From a virus (Duplodnaviria > Caudoviricetes): 64,000 bases of DNA. The stretch is from positions 34,542 to 98,541 of IMG/VR virus record IMGVR_UViG_3300037455_001397; one strand, written 5' to 3'. The notes under the pieces were generated by a model. That model worked only from the letters and a program-made list of their open reading frames with translations, did no database searches and was not told the origin of the DNA. This document shows, piece by piece, positions 1,402-20,082 of the stretch. Within the stretch, counting starts at the first letter, position 1. Every line of letters starts with the position of its first letter. Made by a program: the position numbers and the translations under genes.

Positions 1402-2244
1402 ATGCCATTTTATCCTGACGTTTCACCGGGCGATCCATTCAAACCGAACGCCCGACTGAGCAATGATATCCGGCATCTCGTCAATGCCGCTCATGGCTTC
1501 CAGGACTGCCGGCAGAAAAGTGTTCCTTTGGGAGCCGTGCGAGTGAGCGTGTACAACGCTTCTACCACATTGATTCCGGCGAATACTGCTGTGGTGTTCA
1601 CCTCGGGCGTTACAAAAGGAAACACGCTTCCGGTGAAACAGGCTCCTGCAGGAACAGCTGAATTCGGCATCGTGACCCGTGCGCTTGCCCCGAAAGAATG
1701 CGGGAGCTGCATCATGATCGGAACGGCGACCGTGGATGTTGCCGAAGGATCGGGCAACTTCGTCAAACCGGGCAATACGCGGACATTTGTCCGGGGGAGC
1801 AGCGGAACCGCCAAAATTCTGCATGTTTCTGGGACAAAAGCGGTTATTCTGCTTGGGGGAAGCCAGCCGCAGACAACGCAGATCATTTCGGGTTATGCCG
1901 GAGCCTTCTATGTGAAGAATAATGGAAACGGAACCGTAACCATCTTCAATATCTCCAACCCGTCCGGGGAATACGCGGGACAGGTCATAGTTGGATCAAC
2001 CAGATATAACATGCCTGTCGGAACACTCTCGTTCTCGTCGAACGCTGAAACCGACATCTACCTGACCGTGTATTATGACACGACCACAAAGAAACTGGTT
2101 TACGAATTTGCCACGGAGTTGTCCGAAGAAGTCACCGGACCTCAGGGATGGTACAAAAAACTGGCACATGTGAATAGTTCCGGTCTTGTAACGCAGGTTC
2201 ATTTCTGCGGGGACATTGAAATCACTGGAAGGTGGTGGTACTAA
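1402..2244 (+). CDS. Putative phage tail/baseplate protein
   Basis: ATG 1 nt after the previous stop (MPFYPDVSPGDPFKP...); Gly/Thr/Ser-rich beta sequence. Confidence 0.5.
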   Translation: MPFYPDVSPGDPFKPNARLSNDIRHLVNAAHGFQDCRQKSVPLGAVRVSVYNASTTLIPANTAVVFTSGVTKGNTLPVKQAPAGTAEFGIVTRALAPKECGSCIMIGTATVDVAEGSGNFVKPGNTRTFVRGSSGTAKILHVSGTKAVILLGGSQPQTTQIISGYAGAFYVKNNGNGTVTIFNISNPSGEYAGQVIVGSTRYNMPVGTLSFSSNAETDIYLTVYYDTTTKKLVYEFATELSEEVTGPQGWYKKLAHVNSSGLVTQVHFCGDIEITGRWWY

Positions 2245-3320
2245 TGGATCTTGGCGAATGCTGCTGGGGCGACCCCTCGTTTCGCGCTCCATTTCCTGTA
2301 ATGCAAAGTCTGGTTTCTGCTGCTTGCGAACGCATGGATGCAATATCTTCCAACTTCCATGAAAGCTGCGTATCGTCCGGAATGCAGGCTCTTGTAGAAG
2401 AGAATCTGACGGAAATGCTTGCCTGCGACACCGTGGAAGAAATCCCGTTTAAGGAGATCAAGAAAGAATATACGTTCGATCCGGTTTATGGCGGATACAG
2501 AACGCTGTCATTCATGCACAGATTCGATGGTTTCCTTTGGCAACTGCTCGGCGGGTATGGGTGCGGTTACGATGTGCGATATTACACGGACAAAACGGGA
2601 GCCATTGAGTATAATACGCTGCCAGACCTTGCCAGTGCGCTTTCGGAACCGCTGATCGCTCCTGAATGGATTTACTGGAACGATGATTCTGTGATAAAAG
2701 CAGATGTGAATCTGCAGGTGCTTCTGAATGCGAAATGGGCGTCGCAAAGAATGCGAATGCTGAATCTTCTCCGGTATATAAGAGTCTATAACGGCGGCGT
2801 TATTTTGAGGTCTTCTTATCCGGAAAATGACGGCTGGGGAACCACCCCGCAAAACGCCTACGATTCGATTCAATCTCGGAATATGGTTGATTACACCTAT
2901 TTCGGATTTGAGGAAGATATCGGATGTCGCGTGTGGTACTGGGACACCCAGTTTTCAGATCCCGAAGAACAATGGGTCGTCGAGAACGAATGGTCGGGCG
3001 AAATAGCAGAAATACTGCCGGACTTTCATGGCTGCGCTCCTGCTGAACACGGTGAACTTACGTTTGATGCCGTTGCTCCTGTGGATGACTGGTATTGGGA
3101 TTTCGAAGCTAAGTTCGACCCACTCTGTACGAATATAACATCCGGGGCACAGACGCTGACTTTGAGCGGCGGAAGCTTTGCTTCATGGGGATATGGCTCT
3201 GCATCCACCATAGGCGGGGAGGATACTCCGTATGGGAAATACATCCGCGGATGGCAAGCACAAAACGTGAAGGTTATCTTCGACTATGAATCAACCTTTC
3301 AATTCAAACAGGAGGAATGA
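2244..3320 (+). CDS. Hypothetical phage tail-region protein
   Basis: TAATG stop/start overlap; acidic and aromatic, about 358 aa. Confidence 0.55.
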   Translation: MDLGECCWGDPSFRAPFPVMQSLVSAACERMDAISSNFHESCVSSGMQALVEENLTEMLACDTVEEIPFKEIKKEYTFDPVYGGYRTLSFMHRFDGFLWQLLGGYGCGYDVRYYTDKTGAIEYNTLPDLASALSEPLIAPEWIYWNDDSVIKADVNLQVLLNAKWASQRMRMLNLLRYIRVYNGGVILRSSYPENDGWGTTPQNAYDSIQSRNMVDYTYFGFEEDIGCRVWYWDTQFSDPEEQWVVENEWSGEIAEILPDFHGCAPAEHGELTFDAVAPVDDWYWDFEAKFDPLCTNITSGAQTLTLSGGSFASWGYGSASTIGGEDTPYGKYIRGWQAQNVKVIFDYESTFQFKQEE

Positions 3321-12097: not shown

Positions 12098-12302
12098 GCC
12101 TTTGCGCTGGAAGACACAGCGGCTTTCGTGGCGATCTTTCGGCTATGTTTCGCGCAACGCATAAGGCCTTGGTTCAGGGGCATCCTGCCAAGGGGGCAAG
12201 ATCGCACAAATCGGCCTTTCTGGGCGTTTATTGGCATAAATCATAATGGACCTGCGCGAGCAAACGCCTCAAAACTTTCTGCGAAGAATTATAGAAAAAC
12301 CG

Positions 12303-12513
12303 CTTGACTTTTCTGTAAAAGCATAATCGGAGAATCTTCGATTTTTCTTTCGTTTTCGACTTGCTTTTTGGAAAAAGGGATAGTCGAAGAAAAACTGGTC
12401 TTTCTTCGGAAACCGACTTGATATTGAGGCAAACAATGCTCAAGAAGAAAGTTCAATTAAAAACGCTTATTTCTCTGTAAAAGACTGGCTATTAACGAAT
12501 AGTACGCTAAATT
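12303..12513 (+). promoter_or_regulatory. Promoter-unit array A ending in promoter CTGGCT-17-TAAATT
   Basis: CTTG/CTGG boxes at 12303, 12360, 12417 and 12485. Confidence 0.75.
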
Positions 12514-12566
12514 AACAACAGAACGGGAAGCATAGGGCGACCCACACGACAACAAGGAGATGCAAC

Positions 12567-12827
12567 ATGAAAAAGAGAATCGAATGCAAGATTCCCGAAT
12601 CCTTCTGGAACACCGAAGCCGGTCAGAAAATCGCCGGAGCAATGCACAGCGATGGCTGGGAAGCTTCGGACTGCCTCACGAGCGTGATAGACCTTCTCGA
12701 AGATGGCATCAGGAACTCGCAAGACATGGCAATCGTCGAGGAACTGAAGAAAGCACAGAAGCAGGTGGCCGCCGCCAAGAAAGCCCTCTGGAAAGCATCC
12801 GACATCCTCCGCGAAACAGGATTCTGA
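12567..12827 (+). CDS. Small hypothetical early protein
   Basis: SD AAGGAG, 86 aa, followed by a terminator hairpin at about 12845-12876. Confidence 0.7.
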   Translation: MKKRIECKIPESFWNTEAGQKIAGAMHSDGWEASDCLTSVIDLLEDGIRNSQDMAIVEELKKAQKQVAAAKKALWKASDILRETGF

Positions 12828-12879
12828 ACCGCAACACTCGAACACCCCGCTGCCCTGAGCGACGGGGCTCTCTTTTCGA

Positions 12880-13032
12880 CAATCCTTTTGAAAAAAAGAT
12901 TATCGAAGAAAGATCGGTTTTTCTTCGGAAACCGACTTGATATTGAGGCGAATCATGCTCACGAAGAAAGTTCTATTAAAAACGCTTATTTCTCTATAAA
13001 AGACTGGCTATTAACGAATAACGCGCTAAATT
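12880..13032 (+). promoter_or_regulatory. Promoter-unit array B (near-copy of 12360-12513)
   Basis: Boxes at 12880 (degenerate), 12936 and 13004; TAAATT at 13027-13032. Confidence 0.75.
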
Positions 13033-13102
13033 GTTAATGTCGAGCGGGCGAATGGAACACCTGCGAAAGAAACAAAAAACTGCCAACAGACGGAGGCACA
13101 AG

Positions 13103-13414
13103 ATGGACGAAGAAAAAATCCTCAGAGACACCGAAACCGGCGAAGAATTCACCTATGAGGAAATCGAAGCCGAGTACGAACGACTCAAACGCGATGGGGA
13201 AACCGAAGCGGAAACAATCGGGGACTACATCGAAAACATCACGGCCCCAAACGGAACATGCGAGTGGATCGACGAAACCTGGCACAAATGCGAATGGTGC
13301 GGTGAAATCTACCCCGAAAGCGACCTGAGAGAGGAGAAGGACCTCGGCTACCTCTGCGAACACTGCATCCTTGCCATCTCGAGCCGCGGCGAAGACCTCT
13401 ACCTGAAATACTGA
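13103..13414 (+). CDS. Acidic protein with a C-terminal CxxC..CxxC zinc ribbon
   Basis: SD GGAGG; CEWC...CEHC; Glu-rich. Confidence 0.7.
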   Translation: MDEEKILRDTETGEEFTYEEIEAEYERLKRDGETEAETIGDYIENITAPNGTCEWIDETWHKCEWCGEIYPESDLREEKDLGYLCEHCILAISSRGEDLYLKY

Positions 13415-13470
13415 AACCCAAACGGGAGCCCGCCGAACGGCGGGTTCCCAAACAACCTACGGAGGACAAA

Positions 13471-13905
13471 ATGGAACAGTCAATCATCGACAAACTGAAC
13501 GCCCCCATACAGAAGGACATGCTTCGAGTCGAGGGAATCATGAAAAAACTGGAGATGAATTTCGCGGAAGGCTACATGGACGAGGTCGCGGAAGCGATAT
13601 GCAGAATCCGTCCGCAAACACAGACAAAAGTACGCCCGATTGATTTGAAAGAAGCATGGGAGTTTTCCAATAGAGCAATAAGAGTTGCGACCGACCTTGC
13701 CCGGATAAAACTTGCCGAAAAAATCAAGGCTGAATACCTGAGTCGAGCAACTGCCGATGAAACCAAGTTGAAAGGCTGGTCAAATAAAGCCGCACTGTAC
13801 TTCATCTACGGAATGGATTACGAACGCCCCATCACTGAAAAGCTTGATAAGGCGGTCGAGGCAGAAGTCTACGATGCAATCAAAAAATACCTCGGATTCG
13901 AATAA
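13471..13905 (+). CDS. Hypothetical protein
   Basis: SD GGAGG, 144 aa, followed by a terminator hairpin at about 13918-13942. Confidence 0.7.
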   Translation: MEQSIIDKLNAPIQKDMLRVEGIMKKLEMNFAEGYMDEVAEAICRIRPQTQTKVRPIDLKEAWEFSNRAIRVATDLARIKLAEKIKAEYLSRATADETKLKGWSNKAALYFIYGMDYERPITEKLDKAVEAEVYDAIKKYLGFE

Positions 13906-14123
13906 TCCGAACCCAACGCCCGCGCGACAGCGGGCTTTATTCGTTTAGTTGGGGCTATGTGTCGCGTGACGTGCCGGATTGACCTATTACAAAATGCGAC
14001 CCCCTATGCTAACTCGGACAAAGAGCCGTTTCCGGCCGTTGTTTGCCAAAAATCATAATTGACCAGGCCGAGCAAACGTCCAAAATCTTTTCTCGATATT
14101 TCTCGGAAAAAGCCGGAATAAAA

Positions 14124-14387
14124 CTTGACTTTTCCGAAAAAGCATAATCGGAGAATCTTCGATATTTCTTCCGAAAAAGACTTGACTTTATCAAAAAGGG
14201 ATTATCGAAAGAATGTTCGATATTTCTTTCGTTTATGGCTGGACTTTTGTTTTATCCATGCTCCGGCGTTCTTCGCGTCTTGATAGACATTCTAAAACGA
14301 CCCCGTTCCGAGCTCGGAATAAAAGTCGAATAAAAGTCCTTATTTCTTCGATTAACGACTGGCTATTAACGAATTATGCGCTTAATT
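14124..14387 (+). promoter_or_regulatory. Promoter-unit array C
   Basis: Boxes at 14124, 14181, 14239 and 14359; TTAATT at 14382-14387. Confidence 0.75.
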
Positions 14388-14459
14388 AATTGATGTCGAG
14401 CGGGCGGCACGGGCCGCCTGCGAACCAAACGAAAAATGCCAACCCTGATGGAGGCAAAC

Positions 14460-14711
14460 ATGAGCAAGACGAACATCAAGCTCAACCTGGAAGGAGTGGA
14501 CGGGAATGCGTTCTGCATCCTGGGCCACGCGATGCGCGCACTGAGACAGAACCACAAGATGGAACTCTGGGACGAGTTCCACGCCGAAGCCACCTCCGGC
14601 GACTACAACAAACTCCTCTGCACGGTCTCCGACTGGTTCGACGTCTGCTTCGGCGACGAAGACGAAGATGAAGACGAGTACGACTTCGACTGCGAAGGCG
14701 ACGAAGACTGA
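14460..14711 (+). CDS. Small phage protein (DGNAF...SGDY family) with a very acidic tail
   Basis: SD GGAGG; LEGVDGNAFCILG...ATSGDYNKLL; tail DEDEDEDEYDFDCEGDED. Confidence 0.75.
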   Translation: MSKTNIKLNLEGVDGNAFCILGHAMRALRQNHKMELWDEFHAEATSGDYNKLLCTVSDWFDVCFGDEDEDEDEYDFDCEGDED

Positions 14712-14767
14712 ACCCCCAACAGCATGGCCCGCCGCCTGGCGGGTCATGCCCAACCGGAGAACAAAAC

Positions 14768-14998
14768 ATGAAAAGACTGCAAACCGAAAGCCTGATCGCC
14801 GCGATGAACAGCATCTGCTATGTGGCCACGGGCGAACCGAGCGGAATCTCCGAGGTCTGGAACGGAGACCTTGACGAGCTCGAAGAACACCTCGAAAAGA
14901 TTGAAATCTACGCCGAGGACGAAGGAATGACCGAAACCGCCAAGGAGCTGTTCGCGGCCGCCCACCACATCATCGAAGCCTTCCGAAAAGAAGAGTGA
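14768..14998 (+). CDS. Small acidic hypothetical protein
   Basis: SD GGAG, 76 aa, followed by a terminator at about 15010-15039. Confidence 0.65.
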   Translation: MKRLQTESLIAAMNSICYVATGEPSGISEVWNGDLDELEEHLEKIEIYAEDEGMTETAKELFAAAHHIIEAFRKEE

Positions 14999-15060
14999 AC
15001 ATCGAACACGCCCGGCCGGATGCCGGGCAACTCTTTTTTCGCTTTTTCTTCGCATTTCGA

Positions 15061-15214
15061 CTTGCTATTCAGAAATACCATGCTCCGAAAGAATCTTCGT
15101 TATTTCTTCGCTTTCACACTTGACATTCCGATAAGCTCGTTATGAGCAGAATAAAAAGAAAGATTCGTATTTCTTCGATAAAAGACTGGATTAAGTTTCT
15201 TTAAGCGCTTAATT
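15061..15214 (+). promoter_or_regulatory. Promoter-unit array D
   Basis: Boxes at 15061, 15119 and 15186; TTAATT at 15209-15214. Confidence 0.7.
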
Positions 15215-15282
15215 AATAGCAGAGCGAGGCTGAACGAGGTCGCGCGAACCAAACGAAAAACTCCAAACTGACGGAGGAAACG

Positions 15283-15549
15283 ATGATCGAAATCATCAAG
15301 CATGACGGAGCCTGGACAGTGGCCAAGGCAGTGTTCGAAGGCAAAAACTATCACATCGAAACCAAGCACTTCGAGCTGCCGAGCGAATTCGGAATCAACA
15401 ACGGGCGCATCAGCAAGCTGTTCATCAGCGAGGGGACGAGCTGGAACCCTGACAAATGCCGGTGCGCCTACGACCGCGGCTGGGATCGCAGACCGAGAAC
15501 GAAGGCGGCCAAGGCCATCTACAATGAAATCCTCGCGATGTACAACTGA
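15283..15549 (+). CDS. Conserved phage protein (PSEFGINNGRISKL...YDRGWD family)
   Basis: Motif recognised from small proteins that accompany phage amidoligase clusters. Confidence 0.75.
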   Translation: MIEIIKHDGAWTVAKAVFEGKNYHIETKHFELPSEFGINNGRISKLFISEGTSWNPDKCRCAYDRGWDRRPRTKAAKAIYNEILAMYN

Positions 15550-15561
15550 GGAGGAGCGACC

Positions 15562-16026
15562 ATGGCAAACAACTGCTTCATCGAAATCTCGCTCGAAACC
15601 GAAACCTCCGAACAGGCCAAGGGGCTCCGCAAGGAGCTCCGGGCCGCCTTCCGGCAGGCTGCTCGCGAAAACGTCGGAGCCTACTTCGGGAGCGACCGTT
15701 ACTTCTTCGACGGCAAAGTCGAACAGGACGGAACGGAGGTGTTCATCGGCGGCTGGGTCAAGTGGGGATACAGCGACGGCGAGTTCATCGACATGTTCAG
15801 CTGGCTCCGCCGCAAGACCGCAATCAAGAAGTTCCACATGCACTACGAGGAGCTCATGACCGACCAGTACGGCGAATACGAACTTCACGCGGACGGCACG
15901 GTCTGGAACAACTTCCTGCTCGAAAAAGATTTCCCGACCGAGACCGACGACTACGAAGCCTACTGCGAAAAGGTCGAGGAAGCCTTCCGCACAAAACCCG
16001 CCACAAGATTCATCGAGGTCGGCTGA
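15562..16026 (+). CDS. Hypothetical protein (MANNC N-terminus, acidic)
   Basis: SD GAGGAGG, 154 aa. Confidence 0.7.
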   Translation: MANNCFIEISLETETSEQAKGLRKELRAAFRQAARENVGAYFGSDRYFFDGKVEQDGTEVFIGGWVKWGYSDGEFIDMFSWLRRKTAIKKFHMHYEELMTDQYGEYELHADGTVWNNFLLEKDFPTETDDYEAYCEKVEEAFRTKPATRFIEVG

Positions 16027-16099
16027 ACAGAAACCACCAACGGTCCCGCCACCCTGGCGGGGCCGAAATATCCACACCCCAACATAAGGAACACTCACA

Positions 16100-16285
16100 A
16101 TGGAAACCAAAACCGTCGAACAGTCCATGAAGGAACTCGAAAACCGTGTGCATCTTCTGATGGAAGAACTCTCGGCCGCCGGGCAGGAAAACCTCGCCAA
16201 TCGCATCCAGGACATCTGGGATGAGACCAACTTCCTCCGCGACGAACACCCGGACTTCAATTTCGGGAAGTGGCGCGAAGCGTAA
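16100..16285 (+). CDS. Small acidic hypothetical protein
   Basis: SD AAGGA, 61 aa. Confidence 0.6.
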   Translation: METKTVEQSMKELENRVHLLMEELSAAGQENLANRIQDIWDETNFLRDEHPDFNFGKWREA

Positions 16286-16352
16286 CCGCCAGTATTCGGC
16301 AATAATGGCTTTCCCGTAAAGTCAAGCTCAAAATCGAAGAAAACCGAATCTT

Positions 16353-16414
16353 TCCGCAGATTCGTCGGACGACCTCTTCGCCTCCGTCAGGGCTTTCGTT
16401 CGCGAATCTGCGGA
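16353..16414 (+). ncRNA. Candidate structured RNA element, copy 1 (anti-RBS loop hairpin)
   Basis: Stem TCCGCAGATTCG/CGAATCTGCGGA; loop contains TCGCCTCCGTCAGGGCT. Confidence 0.55.
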
Positions 16415-16653
16415 TTTCTATGCACGGGTATCGCAATTATGCGAAACGTCGCTCGCTTATGCCGGAACGTGCGATCATGCGCCTGGGGTCGCATGTTTCA
16501 AATCGAACGCCGGGGATACGTCGGCCAAATACCGGCCTTTCTGGCGGGCGTTTGGCGTTTTGAATAGAGATCAGACGCGCAAAGCGGCCCGAAACCGGGC
16601 ATCGGATGTTGTCGGTACCGAAAATCTTTTTTCGATATTTCTTCGATCTTCGG

Positions 16654-16750
16654 CTGGATTTATCAACTTTCCATGCTCCCGAATAAAGTCCGAATTAAGT
16701 TCGAATAACCTCGGTTTCCGACTGGCTATTCACGAATAGAACGCTAAATT
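16654..16750 (+). promoter_or_regulatory. Promoter-unit array E
   Basis: Boxes at 16654 and 16722; TAAATT at 16745-16750. Confidence 0.7.
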
Positions 16751-16817
16751 TACAAACGAGCGCGGGAGATACGGAAAACCCGCGGAAACCGAAACCCAAA
16801 CGAAGGAGAACAGAAAA

Positions 16818-17051
16818 ATGCCAGACAGATTTCTGACGGCAACGAAATGTGCAAGATGCGGCGGGTCGCTTGATGGCGGCAGGATAATGAGCCGGTTCAA
16901 TGAGGATGTCCTCTGCCTCGACTGCGAACGCGAAGAGCGCCAGCATCCGGACTACCAGAAGGCTGCCGATGCGGAACTCGCCGCTGTTCGTCGTGGCGAC
17001 ATGAACTTCCCCGGCATCGGCTGGCCGGGAAAGAACGGTCGCGTGAAGTGA
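16818..17051 (+). CDS. Small zinc-finger phage protein (CxRCG...RIMSRFN...CxxC...NFPGIG)
   Basis: Four Cys; family recognised from amidoligase/GGCT neighbourhoods. Confidence 0.75.
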   Translation: MPDRFLTATKCARCGGSLDGGRIMSRFNEDVLCLDCEREERQHPDYQKAADAELAAVRRGDMNFPGIGWPGKNGRVK

Positions 17052-17122
17052 AACAAGAACAACAGGCCGTCGCCAGAAGGTGGCGGCCAGTAAATCTTTC
17101 TTCGATATTTCTTGATATTTCG

Positions 17123-17480
17123 CTTGCTTTTCCGAAAAGAGCATAATCAAAGAATCTTCGATATTTCTTCCGAAAAAGACTGGATTATATTGAAACCGCG
17201 TTACGGAAAGAAAGTTCGATAATTCTTCGCTTTTCCGCTTGACTTCCCCTTTTTCCATGCTCGAAAGAATAATCGATATTTCTTTCGTTTTCCACTTGCT
17301 ATTCTGCTTTTCCATGCTAGAAAAGAATAATAGATATTTCTTCGCTTTCTGACTTGATATTTCTCTTTTACCTCATTTCGAGCAGAAAGACGGCTTTATT
17401 AAAATAATCGGAAGAAAGTTCGATAAAAAGCGTTATTTCTTCGATAAACGACTGGCTATTAACGCTTTCCATGCTTAATT
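17123..17480 (+). promoter_or_regulatory. Promoter-unit array F (longest, 6 boxes)
   Basis: Boxes at 17123, 17180, 17238, 17295, 17353 and 17452; TTAATT at 17475-17480. Confidence 0.8.
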
Positions 17481-17551: not shown

Positions 17552-18445
17552 ATGAGCGAGAACAACATCCTCGACACCGCGAAAACCCTGGGCTTCGGAA
17601 CGGAGCTCGAATACACTCACATCAGCCGCGAAGGAGCCGCGAGAGCAATCCAGAGCGTGGTCGGCGGCAACATCAGCCACACCGGCGGGAGCTACGACGC
17701 CTGGACGGTCACCGCCCCTGACGGACGGAAATGGAAGGCGGTCAGCGATGGCAGCCTCAGCGGAACCTCGGCAGAGGTGGTCACGCCCATCCTGCACTGG
17801 GAAGACTTCGATACCCTGCAGAAGGTGGTGCGCGCCCTGCGCCACGCCGGAGCCAAGACCCCGGCCTGCACGAGCCAGCACGTCCACGTCGGAGTCGAAG
17901 ACTTCACGGCGGCGCAAATCGCGAACTTCGCGAGAATCTGGTACAAGCAGGAAAAGCTCATCCTCAAGGCGGTCGGAACCCTGCCGAGCCGCCTCGCACA
18001 CTACACGAAGCCGACCGACCGCGAGTTCATCGACCGCCTCGAAAAGATGAAACCGCAGACCCGCCAACAGCTGAACATCGCCTGGTACGGGTACGCGAAC
18101 CCGCGTCCTGCCCACTACGACAGCACCCGCTACCGCGCCATCAACCTCAACAACGTGTGGACCACGGGGACGGTCGAGCTGAGGTGCTTCAATGGCTGTA
18201 ATCATGCGGGCAAGGTCAAAACAGCCGCGATTCTTGCCCTGATGATCGCCGCCAAGGCCAAGACCGCGAAGTGCGCGAGCACGAAGAAGCCGCGCGAGTA
18301 CAGCGAGGAGAGCGCCGCCTACGATATGCGGGTGTTCCTCCTCCACCTCAAGGCAATCGGGCCGGAGTTCAAAAACTTCCGCAAGCACCTCCTCGACAAC
18401 CTGCCGGGGAACAAGGCGTGGAAGCACGGCAGGCCGAACGCCTGA
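17552..18445 (+). CDS. Amidoligase (COOH-NH2 ligase, Amidoligase_2 family)
   Basis: FGTELE, DGSL, EVVTPIL, HVHV, RYRAIN and TVELR motifs. Confidence 0.9.
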   Translation: MSENNILDTAKTLGFGTELEYTHISREGAARAIQSVVGGNISHTGGSYDAWTVTAPDGRKWKAVSDGSLSGTSAEVVTPILHWEDFDTLQKVVRALRHAGAKTPACTSQHVHVGVEDFTAAQIANFARIWYKQEKLILKAVGTLPSRLAHYTKPTDREFIDRLEKMKPQTRQQLNIAWYGYANPRPAHYDSTRYRAINLNNVWTTGTVELRCFNGCNHAGKVKTAAILALMIAAKAKTAKCASTKKPREYSEESAAYDMRVFLLHLKAIGPEFKNFRKHLLDNLPGNKAWKHGRPNA

Positions 18446-18487: not shown

Positions 18488-18655
18488 AGCATGGCTTGCC
18501 GAAAAAGCAAGCGGTTCTTTGAAATAAAACGAAAGAAATTCGGATAATCCGGTTTTCGGAATAGCAAGTCCAAACCGAAAGAAAAACGCGACTTTCTGCC
18601 GATTATGCCTTTCCCGAAAAGTCAACCGGAAATCCGAAGAAAAACGAATCTTTTC
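18488..18655 (-). repeat. Inverted array of three promoter-like units (a single inverted unit lies at about 16300-16355)
   Basis: Minus-strand boxes at 18626, 18568 and 18511 (spacing 58, 57). The reverse complement of 18599-18625, TTGACTTTTCGGGAAAGGCATAATCGG, matches 14125-14151 with 3 mismatches. Confidence 0.7.
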
Positions 18656-18715
18656 CGCAGTTTTGCCGGGGACCTCACTCGCCTCCGTCAGGGCTGTTTC
18701 CGGCGAAACTGCGGA
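18654..18715 (+). ncRNA. Candidate structured RNA element, copy 2 (anti-RBS loop hairpin)
   Basis: 20-bp stem with 3 G-U pairs and a different inner stem sequence from copy 1; identical 17-nt loop segment. Confidence 0.55.
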
Positions 18716-18896
18716 TTTTAATTCGAGCATTCTAAATCGCTTCCCCTATGCCGATTATGCCAAACGTCGCTCGCTTTGGGCTCAACGTGCGATTCGGCAG
18801 CCGGGGAAGCACCCCCCAAATCCAACCGCATAAATCAACCCCCACAAACGGCCCCGGAACGGCCACAAAACCCGTAAAGAATAGGAGGTCAGACCT

Positions 18897-19175: not shown

Positions 19176-19516
19176 ACGCTATCTTCATCGATGCCCAAAA
19201 CAAGACTGTCAGCCTGATCGAGATTGAAAACGATCTCCAGGCCATGTACGACAAAATCGGATGCCTGCTCGTGCAGACCGTTCCCTTTGCCGGGGAAAAC
19301 ATCGTCTGCGATGAGGAAGGACGCCTCAAGCGGTGGACTTCCGGATTCGAGCTCGGCGACTGGCGCATCGTCGGCAACGCCCTGATCGTCGGCGACACCG
19401 AGGACGGGGACTTCGCGGACACGAAACTGTTAGCAGAAGAGATCGCAAAGCAAATCCGGTTCTTCGGCGAAGACGAACCGCTGCCACCTCCGGAATTCCA
19501 TGTCATCGGGCTGTGA
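19172..19516 (+). CDS. DUF3846-like protein
   Basis: NDLQAMYDKIG...IVCDEEGRL...IVGNALIVG...GDF pattern. Confidence 0.7.
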   Translation: MNAIFIDAQNKTVSLIEIENDLQAMYDKIGCLLVQTVPFAGENIVCDEEGRLKRWTSGFELGDWRIVGNALIVGDTEDGDFADTKLLAEEIAKQIRFFGEDEPLPPPEFHVIGL

Positions 19517-19620
19517 AAACTTTATCGAAGAAACTTCATCTTATTCTCCGAAAGGCACTTGCGTTAATCAAAAGTCATGCTTTAAGTAATAACAGCCACA
19601 ACCATAAGGAGAAAGAATCC

Positions 19621-20082
19621 ATGAACACCCCGATCCTCTACTTCGCCTACGGGTCGAACCTCAACCCGAAACGCATCCACCACAGATGTCCGACAGCCGC
19701 TTCATTCAGAGCAGCCCAGCTCAAGAACTATCGTCTCGTCGAACGCCTTTACGCCGACATCGACTATGAAGAAGGCGCTGTGGTCCATGGCGTCCTCTAC
19801 TGCATCAGCGAACGAGAACTGAGCATCCTCGACACCTACGAGGGATGCCCGCACATCTACCGCAGAATCTGGATCGAGGCCGACTGCAACGGCGAGACCT
19901 TCGTGGCCGCGACCTACGAGATGACGCCCGAAACGAAAGTCCTTCGCGAAGGTCAGCCGTTCCCCGAAGATTACAGAAAGATCTGCTCTGTGGGTGCGGC
20001 CTTCCACCGCATCCCAAATGCATTCCGCAACAACAAAAACTTCTTCCATCAACTCAACCTCAAAAGGAGCACAAAAAAATGA
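19621..20082 (+). CDS. Gamma-glutamylcyclotransferase-like protein
   Basis: YFAYGSNL, VHGVLY and LDTYEG motifs; a single promoter-like unit at about 19525-19590. Confidence 0.85.
   Translation: MNTPILYFAYGSNLNPKRIHHRCPTAASFRAAQLKNYRLVERLYADIDYEEGAVVHGVLYCISERELSILDTYEGCPHIYRRIWIEADCNGETFVAATYEMTPETKVLREGQPFPEDYRKICSVGAAFHRIPNAFRNNKNFFHQLNLKRSTKK

Follow-up and report, generated by a model that had tools for sequence, protein, structure and literature searches.

We analyzed a 64,000-nucleotide stretch of tailed-phage DNA (the window) that makes up the right 64 kb of one 98.5-kb contig filed as a virus record (IMG/VR record IMGVR_UViG_3300037455_001397), with a focus on six gene cassettes at window positions 12.3–18.4 kb, each of which carries same-strand units of 57/58 bp 5' of its genes. 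Every cassette follows the same order—i.e., terminator, array of units, terminal promoter, leader, and one to three small genes. Each unit contains a −35-like hexamer, hereafter the box. The arrays begin directly 3' of terminator-like hairpins, and the leaders, conserved and ~65–100 nt long, carry a hairpin at their 5' end and a ribosome-binding site, GGAGG. The arrays and inverted units are as follows:

12282–12513, plus strand: array A, with internal boxes at 12303, 12360, and 12417, terminal box CTGGCT at 12485–12490, and −10-like TAAATT at 12508–12513.
12870–13032, plus strand: array B, with a degenerate unit (CAATCC) at 12880, an internal box at 12936, a terminal box at 13004–13009, and TAAATT at 13027–13032.
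14085–14387, plus strand: array C, with boxes at 14124, 14181, and 14239, a degenerate unit (box-like GATAGACA at 14282–14289 plus CCCCGTTCCGAGC at 14301–14313), two 11-bp GAATAAAAGTC repeats, a terminal box at 14359–14364, and TTAATT at 14382–14387.
15030–15214, plus strand: array D, with a box at 15061, a variant box at 15119 followed by CGTTATGAGCAG, terminal box CTGGAT at 15186–15191, and TTAATT at 15209–15214.
16620–16750, plus strand: array E, with a box at 16654, three 11-bp GAATWAAGTYC-like repeats, a terminal box at 16722–16727, and TAAATT at 16745–16750.
17090–17480, plus strand: array F, with boxes at 17123, 17180, 17238, 17295, and 17353 (the last followed by CCTCATTTCGAGCAG), a terminal box at 17452–17457, and TTAATT at 17475–17480.
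16290–16345, minus strand: single inverted unit with its box at 16326, facing the 3' end of cassette D.
18490–18650, minus strand: inverted three-unit array with boxes at 18626, 18568, and 18511 (spacing 58 and 57 bp), lacking a terminal promoter and conserved in two relatives (L050 and L066).

The genes and terminators of the cassettes are as follows:

12567–12827, plus strand: gene of cassette A.
13103–13414 and 13471–13905, plus strand: genes of cassette B.
14460–14711 and 14768–14998, plus strand: genes of cassette C.
15283–15549 (DUF7678), 15562–16026, and 16100–16285, plus strand: genes of cassette D.
16818–17051, plus strand: gene of cassette E.
17552–18445, plus strand: gene of cassette F (Amidoligase_2).
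12852–12868, plus strand: intrinsic-terminator-like hairpin closing cassette A; further ones lie at 13918–13935 and 15010–15028.

The cassette products are small proteins, one of which matches DUF7678 while the others match only PHROG families with no assigned function, plus the Amidoligase_2 enzyme. An initial annotation of this DNA had described the cassettes as early operons giving an immediate burst on DNA entry. This description is unsupported: the phage is temperate, with a CI-like repressor, and the cassettes follow its tail and lysis genes, each with its own promoter and terminator, which is a moron-like position. The proposed silence of the cassettes in the lysogen is likewise unsupported.

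The boxes reported in the initial annotation (CT[TG]G[ACG][CT]) were all found in arrays A–F, and the reported spacings were reproduced: 57, 57, and 68 bp in A; 56 (from the degenerate unit) and 68 bp in B; 57, 58, and 120 bp in C; 58 and 67 bp in D; 68 bp in E; and 57, 58, 57, 58, and 99 bp in F. One hexamer, CTTGAT at 14279, had been set aside as not fitting; it is part of the degenerate unit of array C and is kept in relatives as TTGACA/TTAGAT at +43/44. When up to two mismatches were allowed, the core 14-mer TCGATATTTCTTCG occurred 17 times in the window, compared to 1.0 expected (0 of 100 shuffles reached 17), and 16 of these 17 matches fell in 12282–17443. A weight matrix for the unit found no other cluster on the 98.5-kb contig; besides the arrays, it detected the inverted units (16326 and 18511/18568/18626) and single promoter-like sites. 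The inverted array at 18511–18626, which lies beyond the coordinates covered by the initial annotation, faces a terminator and the 3' end of the amidoligase gene.

Relatives were recovered by the exact pattern of the terminal promoter, yielding one locus from a viral collection (L016), 47 metagenome loci, and 5 loci in metagenome-assembled genomes (MAGs). On viral contigs, a 15-mer pattern gave 22 chance matches and one true relative, again L016. The relatives derive from metagenomes and MAGs of the rumen (cattle, sheep, and yak); the title of one MAG is Lentisphaeria bacterium UBA1732. The matrix identified 394 units in them, 320 of which were unique (235 internal and 85 terminal). At least one internal unit preceded every cassette in every relative, and in every long relative (L046, L050, L076, L041, and L066), the same grammar of one to five internal units, terminal promoter, leader, and one to three small genes was repeated six to nine times. 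The array of the amidoligase gene (F) had five internal units in all orthologues examined. Distant protein relatives of an 83-aa cassette protein (L024–L026) lacked arrays.

In sequence logos, an internal unit consists, in order, of (C)CATGCTC or CATAATC, an A-rich RAAGAAT, TTCGATATTTCTTCG, seven nucleotides ending in GA, CTTGAC followed by TT, and ~12 variable nucleotides. The conserved element is the asymmetric T-rich block TTCGATATTTCTTCG, 7 nt before the box, and the box itself is CTTGAC, CTTGAT, CTTGCT, or TTTGAC in ~70% of the 235 internal units. Also conserved are CATGCTC and RAAGAAT, which have no role in polymerase recognition, and CG/YG steps at −21, −10, and +1 (in terminal units also at +11 and +20), ~10–11 bp apart; TCTTCG-N5-TCTTCG direct repeats lie inside the unit core. 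The core had been regarded as a dyad, but this dyad is weak: the left arm is poorly conserved and in some orthologues is replaced outright, the mean longest inverted repeat is 5.16 bp, compared to 4.94 bp with shuffled partners and 4.29 bp with shuffled letters, and the core is one-stranded, with 181 copies of TTTCTTC against 36 of its complement. Roughly half of the internal units have, at +18/19, the CATGCT or CATAAT said to end the spacer, and a third class carries CCTCA-N3-TGAGC at this place.

Internal units are depleted of −10 sequences. Their hexamer is close to TTGACA, as in canonical sigma-70 promoters, but no −10 (TAnnnT) follows 16–18 bp downstream, and a consensus scan of the internal units found no canonical promoter. 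TAnnnT at +20 to +32 occurred in 0.9% of internal units, compared to 13% in shuffles of the same 12-mers. CATAAT or CATGCT follows the internal hexamer by only 12–13 nt, a spacer that is, to our knowledge, too short for any sigma-70-family holoenzyme. At a lag of 57/58 bp, units are only ~45% identical, yet the motif positions are kept among such paralogous units, which argues for long-term selection on these positions.

Several other identities for the units were considered and rejected. Fourier peaks at 9.5, 11.5, and 14.5 bp, suggestive of an independent A-tract period, are harmonics of 57.5 bp, and hairpin or dyad covariation was only 0.2 bp above the partner-shuffled control. An extracytoplasmic function (ECF)-type −10 (TCGRR at +23 to +25) was present in just 68 of 235 units, and promoters with 20–23-nt spacers (AAGAAT at +27 to +30) or an overlapping nnGACT −35 were too weak and inconsistently placed. 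A sigma-54 promoter (TGGCAC-N5-TTGC) was dismissed, as CTGGCTATTAACGAAT lacks the GC at −12 and the D-type promoter conserves only CTGG. Neither a CRISPR array nor attC sites match degenerate repeats present in multiple copies 5' of cassettes. A TATCGAA on the minus strand of the core resembles the Spo0A 0A box (6/7), and the host is a non-sporeformer by its MAG title. A plasmid or phage centromere or iteron array does not agree with a 57/58-bp unit, a weak dyad, and neighbors that are small cassettes rather than par or rep genes.

Only the last unit of each array has a −10-like element, as the initial annotation had noted: all six terminal units in the window read CTGG[CA]T-N17-T[AT]AATT. Among the relatives, the terminal box was CTGG[CA]T in 82 of 85 cases and T[AT]AATT was present in 96%. 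Compared to the host consensus CTTGAY...TATAAT, the terminal promoter has the right geometry (spacing 17) but a weak match (3/6 for CTGGCT and 3–4/6 for TAAATT or TTAATT). Its spacer ATTAACGAAT and palindromic core TTAATTAA are more conserved than a normal spacer or −10. Two cassette-type promoters occur without internal units, one at contig 2170–3008 (L079), where CTGGAC-17-TTTAAG precedes a 248-aa gene and 11-bp TTAAGTTCGAT-like repeats lie upstream, and the other, CTTGCG-17-TTTAAG, at window position 19558.

To quantify unit spacing, we counted non-identical neighbor pairs, which are not phylogenetically independent; since the weight matrix takes no account of spacing, the result is not circular. 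All 138 internal spacings fell within 56–59 bp (57 bp in 80 pairs, 58 bp in 54, 56 bp in 3, and 59 bp in 1). Longer gaps fell at 67–69 bp (26), 77–79 bp (6), 87–90 bp (10), 99–100 bp (16), 109 bp (1), 115–120 bp (26), 130–131 bp (3), and 134 bp (1). Using one value per sequence cluster and length (37 values >60 bp), the best period was 10.2–10.4 bp with a resultant R of 0.63, which 0 of 2000 random sets reached. Adding the 57/58 values lifted the resultant to 0.75, so the short and longer gaps are in the same phase. At 10.45 bp per turn, the gap classes correspond to 5.5, 6.5, 7.5, 8.5, 9.5, 11.5, and 12.5 turns, the last gap being 57.5 bp plus whole helical turns; because neighboring units are 5.5 turns apart, they lie on opposite faces of the helix. 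Spacings of 57 and 58 bp alternate, and the two-unit distance was 115 bp (11.0 turns) in 54 of 75 cases, compared to 45% expected. The rule of half-integer turns proposed for the window therefore holds in ~50 diverged relatives, and random spacing was not seen in these homologues. Several length steps are visibly made by copies of 10–11-bp sub-repeats (GAAAGATTCA GAAAGAATCA; GAATAAAAGTC twice or three times). Conversely, the last gap of array F exists in three sequence-unrelated variants, all 99–100 bp long, which favors selection on gap length.

We also examined the phage itself. Tail-type genes, including a phage tail repeat, lie upstream of the array region, and the left arm of the contig contains the following:

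Left arm: genes for a lambda-family portal, a C5 methylase, a primase/helicase, AAA_24, and ParB_N proteins.
Left arm: gene for a CI-like S24 repressor, with the canonical promoter TTGACT-17-TATAGT.
Left arm: PR-like promoter TTGATT-17-TATATT, divergent from CI.
Contig 19483–20079 (L080 1483–2079), minus strand: gene for a 198-aa sigma-like protein (Sigma70_r2, 8.7e-6; phrog_351) in the PR-like operon.

Of the open reading frames (ORFs) scanned in the left arm and control block, none was recognized as a phage RNA polymerase gene; given this gene content, the source is a temperate tailed phage transcribed by the host polymerase. Candidate DNA binders encoded by the phage are CI, three ParB_N-domain proteins, whose genes are ~30 kb distant from the arrays, and the sigma-like protein. 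A homologue of the latter on a related prophage contig (G002:C12), where the array motifs are conserved, is 26% identical, and the gene is absent from the L016 record (73% complete). The phage database contained no DNA relative, and amidoligase matches were at most 39% identical. As side observations, a low-GC (36–45%) island 3' of the cassettes (window 21209–52000), with an N6/N4 methylase, ResIII and SNF2 helicases, and other large ORFs, looks like a defense or counter-defense island, and the left arm also carries an AbiEii-type toxin gene, an S-adenosylmethionine synthetase, and a ParB_N-methylase fusion (L079 3781–7198). Beside the CI gene, the −35 of the PR-like promoter directly adjoins the palindrome CCTAATTAGG (contig 22645; L080 4645–4654), and a related CTTAATTAAG/C core forms the −10 region of cassette promoters (window 14382, 15209, and 17475, and relatives; +22 of the terminal box); in relatives, 10 of 10 CYTAATTARG matches were at this +22 offset. 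These palindromes may be a common operator linking the cassettes to the lysis-lysogeny switch. The palindromes of the CI-PR intergenic region differ from the array units.

When two host MAGs were scanned, CTTGAY-N17-19-TATAAT was found 26 times, compared to 2 in the control, often as CTTGAYTTTT, as in the units; by this match, the unit box is the host −35. Upstream of host promoters, A/T peaks recur ~10 bp apart, the strongest at the offset of ATATTTCTT in the unit. An UP element is an A/T-rich stretch at about −40 to −60 that the alpha C-terminal domain binds; as a candidate for one, ATATTTCTT sits at −19 to −11 from the box, at the strongest A/T peak of the host, and the block also has conserved C/G. 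The CI, PR-like, and 40714 promoters of the phage are canonical with spacers of 16–17 bp, and the latter two have an upstream half of T-rich block plus CTTGAY like that of the units. Across four host MAGs, the composite ATTTCTT-N10-CTKGAY formed clusters on prophage contigs only, with singletons elsewhere; two or three of these singletons belong to canonical host promoters that have a correctly spaced TATAAT (L087/L109; more weakly L090/L091). In these four MAGs, the arrays proved phage-specific, in that repeated units with their spacing did not occur at ordinary host promoters, while the box alone is an ordinary host −35. A search of the four MAGs for 16S genes, intended to locate ribosomal RNA (rRNA) promoters, found none. 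Separately, two contig ends of a host MAG (G002:C10:48–70 and G002:C17:48–70; L090 and L091) carry an identical, outward-pointing promoter-like sequence, ATTTCTT-N10-CTTGACA-17-TATTTT, which may drive a repeat missing from the assembly, for instance an rRNA operon.

In contigs from other samples, one array is fused directly to another, and the cassettes in between are missing entirely (12352>14154, 14150>17264, and 14188>17150). The joints link A to C and C to F and fall at homologous positions of the units. The set of cassettes varies among the window, L016, L046, and L050, and orthologous F arrays are mosaics of a few haplotypes. Related phages would swap, acquire, and lose cassettes through homology between the repeated units, probably as a by-product.

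Arrays A, C, and E are opened by a conserved element of ~200 nt, the "head," which also occurs inverted:

12100–12295, plus strand: head opening array A.
13930–14117 and 16440–16620, plus strand: further head copies.
16286–16480 and 18590–18840, minus strand: inverted head copies.
L016 8530–8765 and 10150–10385: head copies in the viral-collection relative.

Each head includes a GTTTGC...GCAAAC stem and a small hairpin of terminator type (CGGCC-tttct-GGCCG, then a T-rich run), and with the inverted copies, the cassette region as a whole is bracketed by inverted heads. A candidate head promoter (CTGGGC-16-CATAAT at 12234–12261) was rejected, as it is not conserved in L016. Two inverted heads, after cassettes D and F, carry a hairpin insertion of ~60 nt (window 16353–16414 and 18654–18715) followed by U-rich tracts. 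The insertion loop reads GCCTCCGTCAGGG on the plus strand and complements the ribosome-binding regions, CCCTGA(C/T)GGAGGC, in the leaders of the cassettes; judging by this complementarity, the hairpins may be 3'-end small RNAs or terminators that pair with cassette ribosome-binding sites.

Our preferred explanation, to which we give somewhat less than an even chance, is that host RNA polymerase, perhaps together with a co-factor, docks at the internal units, which would be promoter halves without a −10, set in phase next to a real but weak promoter. The arrays would then be cis-acting docking platforms on double-stranded DNA, derived from tandem promoter upstream halves, in which each internal unit offers the T-rich TTCGATATTTCTTCG at the position of host UP-like A/T sequence, followed by the host consensus −35 and flank (CTTGAY TT). 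The holoenzyme, through sigma region 4 and the alpha C-terminal domains, would bind each internal unit but could not open the DNA, so that the array would hold polymerase, or a factor, beside the intrinsically weak terminal promoter, whose −35 is weakened to CTGGCT, and might thereby set the strength or timing of cassette expression. A further factor might read the TCGA and CATGCTC parts. A more specific version, possible but on balance improbable, is an evolved "polymerase parking lot," a row of consensus UP/−35 modules stripped of −10 elements that holds several holoenzymes in closed complexes on alternating helix faces, 5.5 turns apart and 11 per pair, and so feeds or gates the weak promoter. 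The initial annotation had envisaged a protein scaffold, either a polymerase-loading array or a regulator lattice; a scaffold of this kind is also our preferred reading. What the sequences show is the anatomy of the units, their conservation, phasing, −10 depletion, phage specificity, the identity of the box with the host −35, and the array joints, while protein binding, the polymerase as ligand, and an effect on expression are what we infer. In two RNA libraries and two doubtful ones, assembled contigs map to arrays, heads, and genes without distinction; they end at repeats, may contain DNA, and cannot show 5' ends.

A number of observations weigh against docking of polymerase. The inverted arrays at 16326 and 18511–18626 have no promoter to serve and are left unexplained by it, ~18% of internal boxes are CTGG.., a poor −35, and we know of no established mechanism by which −10-less sites act as a polymerase reservoir. 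The conserved CG at −21/−10, CATGCTC, and RAAGAAT are not needed by the alpha C-terminal domain or sigma region 4 and point to an additional or different sequence-specific ligand. Although a lattice is evident in relatives, phasing does not hold everywhere: last gaps of the C type spread over 115–120 bp, or over 54–58 bp if measured from the hidden degenerate unit. Because length steps consist of tandem 10–11-bp sub-repeats, the lattice can come partly from slippage. Gap openings per 100 substitutions, an alignment-dependent measure, were 8.7 in arrays, 20.2 in leaders, 4.4 in heads, and 3.3 in terminal promoters, revealing no clear length constraint on arrays. Lastly, pairwise identity among nine orthologous F arrays was 0.84 at motif positions and 0.80 at other array positions (0.93 in the leader and 0.68 in the last gap), compared to 0.81 at third codon positions of the amidoligase gene, so that orthologous arrays diverge about as fast as the latter, and short-term sequence constraint on the arrays is weak. 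The earlier argument that drifting sequence with conserved phase implies selection on geometry is thus only partly upheld: spacing is kept, but slippage can make a lattice and arrays change at about the rate of third codon positions. The argument for function rests on motif retention among old paralogues, spacing, and −10 depletion.

The main rival to polymerase docking, possible but on balance improbable, is a dedicated phage or host regulator that binds the TTCG-N7-TTCG/TCGA block in every unit, oligomerizes, and represses or activates the terminal promoter; the box and CATGCTC would perhaps be bound too, the 10–11-bp sub-repeats before the terminal box (GAATAAAAGTC and TTCGATAAA) would be extra sites, and polymerase would not occupy internal units. 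A regulator would account for the CG/YG steps at intervals of ~10–11 bp and the direct repeats in the core, for a length lattice built from varying numbers of sub-repeats, for inverted units away from promoters, and for the conservation of CATGCTC, RAAGAAT, ATTAACGAAT, and TTAATTAA beyond what a polymerase would require, and CI, the ParB_N proteins, and the sigma-like protein are candidate binders. However, none of these proteins is tied to the motif, the dyad expected of a dimeric operator is weak, there is no 16-bp parS-like palindrome, and the CI-PR intergenic palindromes are different; nor would a regulator explain the host −35 with its TTTT flank, the gene-wise orientation, or the purge of −10 sequences. 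Alternatively, and with a low probability in our judgment, the units are inert, decayed copies of the promoter region that arose by tandem duplication, kept alike by recombination or gene conversion and acting only as homology linkers, with the phasing a product of unit length plus slippage of sub-repeats. The array-to-array joints, the mosaic haplotypes of F arrays, the substitution rate near that of third codon positions, and the visible sub-repeats are all as expected from such relics, and shuffling mediated by the promoter early stem-loop (PeSL) of T4-type phages is a precedent (PMC2839356). Yet concerted evolution would homogenize whole units, whereas only motif positions are kept among paralogues; moreover, all 138 internal spacings stay within 56–59 bp despite heavy substitution, 115-bp pairs are in excess, unrelated last-gap variants are equal in length, −10-like hexamers are depleted, and no cassette of any relative is without an internal unit. 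Were the units inert, what remained would be PeSL-like shuffling in a new group of phages.

Tandem promoters for a nonstandard holoenzyme, formed with the phage sigma-like protein, a host ECF sigma, or a MotA/AsiA-type remodeled polymerase, seem less probable still. Here, the recognition pair would be the box and CATGCT/CATAAT 12 nt downstream, or TCGRA at +23 to +25, and every unit would fire, with the outputs adding up. The phage has a sigma-like gene in its PR-like operon, and the distance from MotA box to −10 in T4 middle promoters resembles the 12-nt gap from box to CATRMT. Nonetheless, a 12–13-nt spacer fits no sigma-70-family holoenzyme, no more than about half of the units have CATRMT, TCGRR occurs in 68 of 235, and the sigma-like gene is strongly diverged where arrays are conserved and missing from the incomplete L016 record; contigs from RNA libraries do cover the arrays but cannot show starts. 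The least likely explanation, to which we attach very little weight, is an element acting as RNA, in which arrays within long leaders, made by read-through or a start in the head, would be modules for protein binding, processing, or antitermination. Contigs from two RNA libraries spanning head and array (12176–12371 and 13976–14254) and the anti-Shine-Dalgarno hairpins beside inverted arrays would be consistent with this. Against it, the libraries may hold DNA and the contigs end at repeats, hairpin complementarity within units is barely above control, quantization by helical turn is a property of double-stranded DNA, and the arrays begin behind terminators; an Rfam scan of 11.9–19.0 kb found no match, the best being IS128 at E 0.31.

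Elements of this layout recall several known systems. T7 A1-A2-A3 and the early promoter clusters of T5 and SPO1 also place several same-orientation promoter-like units before one transcription unit, but theirs are complete active promoters with a −10, >100 bp apart and on no strict lattice, whereas the internal units here lack a −10. The rrnB P1 UP element with its FIS sites and the class I CRP sites at −61.5/−71.5/−82.5/−92.5 share an A/T-rich block directly 5' of the −35 and distances in one-turn steps; unlike the units, which have their own consensus −35 and half-integer turns, those sites lie on the same face as the promoter and are not copies of a −35. The omega heptads of pSM19035, ParR-parC of R1, the 43-bp SopB-sopC repeats, and the KorB operators of RK2 exert cooperative, coordinated control through multiple arrays before several promoters of one mobile element, although such repeats are short (7–20 bp) or palindromic and lie beside partition genes, while the unit here contains the host −35; no comparable protein-site pair was identified for this phage. 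Escherichia coli promoter islands, stretches of horizontally acquired A/T-rich DNA that reportedly bind RNA polymerase with little productive transcription, likewise cluster promoter-like sequences in foreign A/T-rich DNA (PMC3661553 and PMC7054387). Islands are irregular, dense, overlapping, and on both strands, whereas our units are discrete, co-oriented, phased, and a conserved family. The closest system is the PeSL cassettes of the T4-type phages phi1 and RB49, whose role in shuffling was shown experimentally (PMC2839356). In both cases, a promoter and stem-loop are repeated before small ORFs with no assigned function in a plastic region and serve as crossover points, with recombination changing cassette content (PMC2839356). 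A PeSL, however, provides one complete strong sigma-70-type promoter per gene (PMC2839356), whereas here each cassette has one to five extra −10-less copies at a 57/58-bp pitch on a helical lattice before a nonconsensus real promoter, in a temperate siphovirus-like element of an uncultured rumen bacterium and without sequence homology to PeSLs. In the literature searched, PeSLs and promoter islands were nearest, and neither has −10-less copies on a helical lattice. The layout therefore extends known repeated promoter modules before phage accessory cassettes, the added part being the −10-less copies on this lattice.

If the units bind polymerase or a regulator in a phase-dependent manner, they would be a natural example of helical geometry, beyond sequence, being preserved in a multi-site bacterial control region, and the ~50 natural variants offer a ready spacing series of 57/58, 68, 78, 89, 99, 120, and 130 bp. 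Polymerase parking, if true, would be a principle of cis regulation for which we know of no description in a phage or bacterium. With phase-dependent binding of either protein, the arrays would be a portable control module for the interchangeable accessory cassettes of a temperate phage and, at the same time, a recombination site for swapping them. Among the cassette products are an amidoligase and small proteins of acidic or zinc-ribbon type, kinds often linked to counter-defense. The finding would bear on the regulation and shuffling of phage "moron" and anti-defense gene sets in the rumen microbiome.

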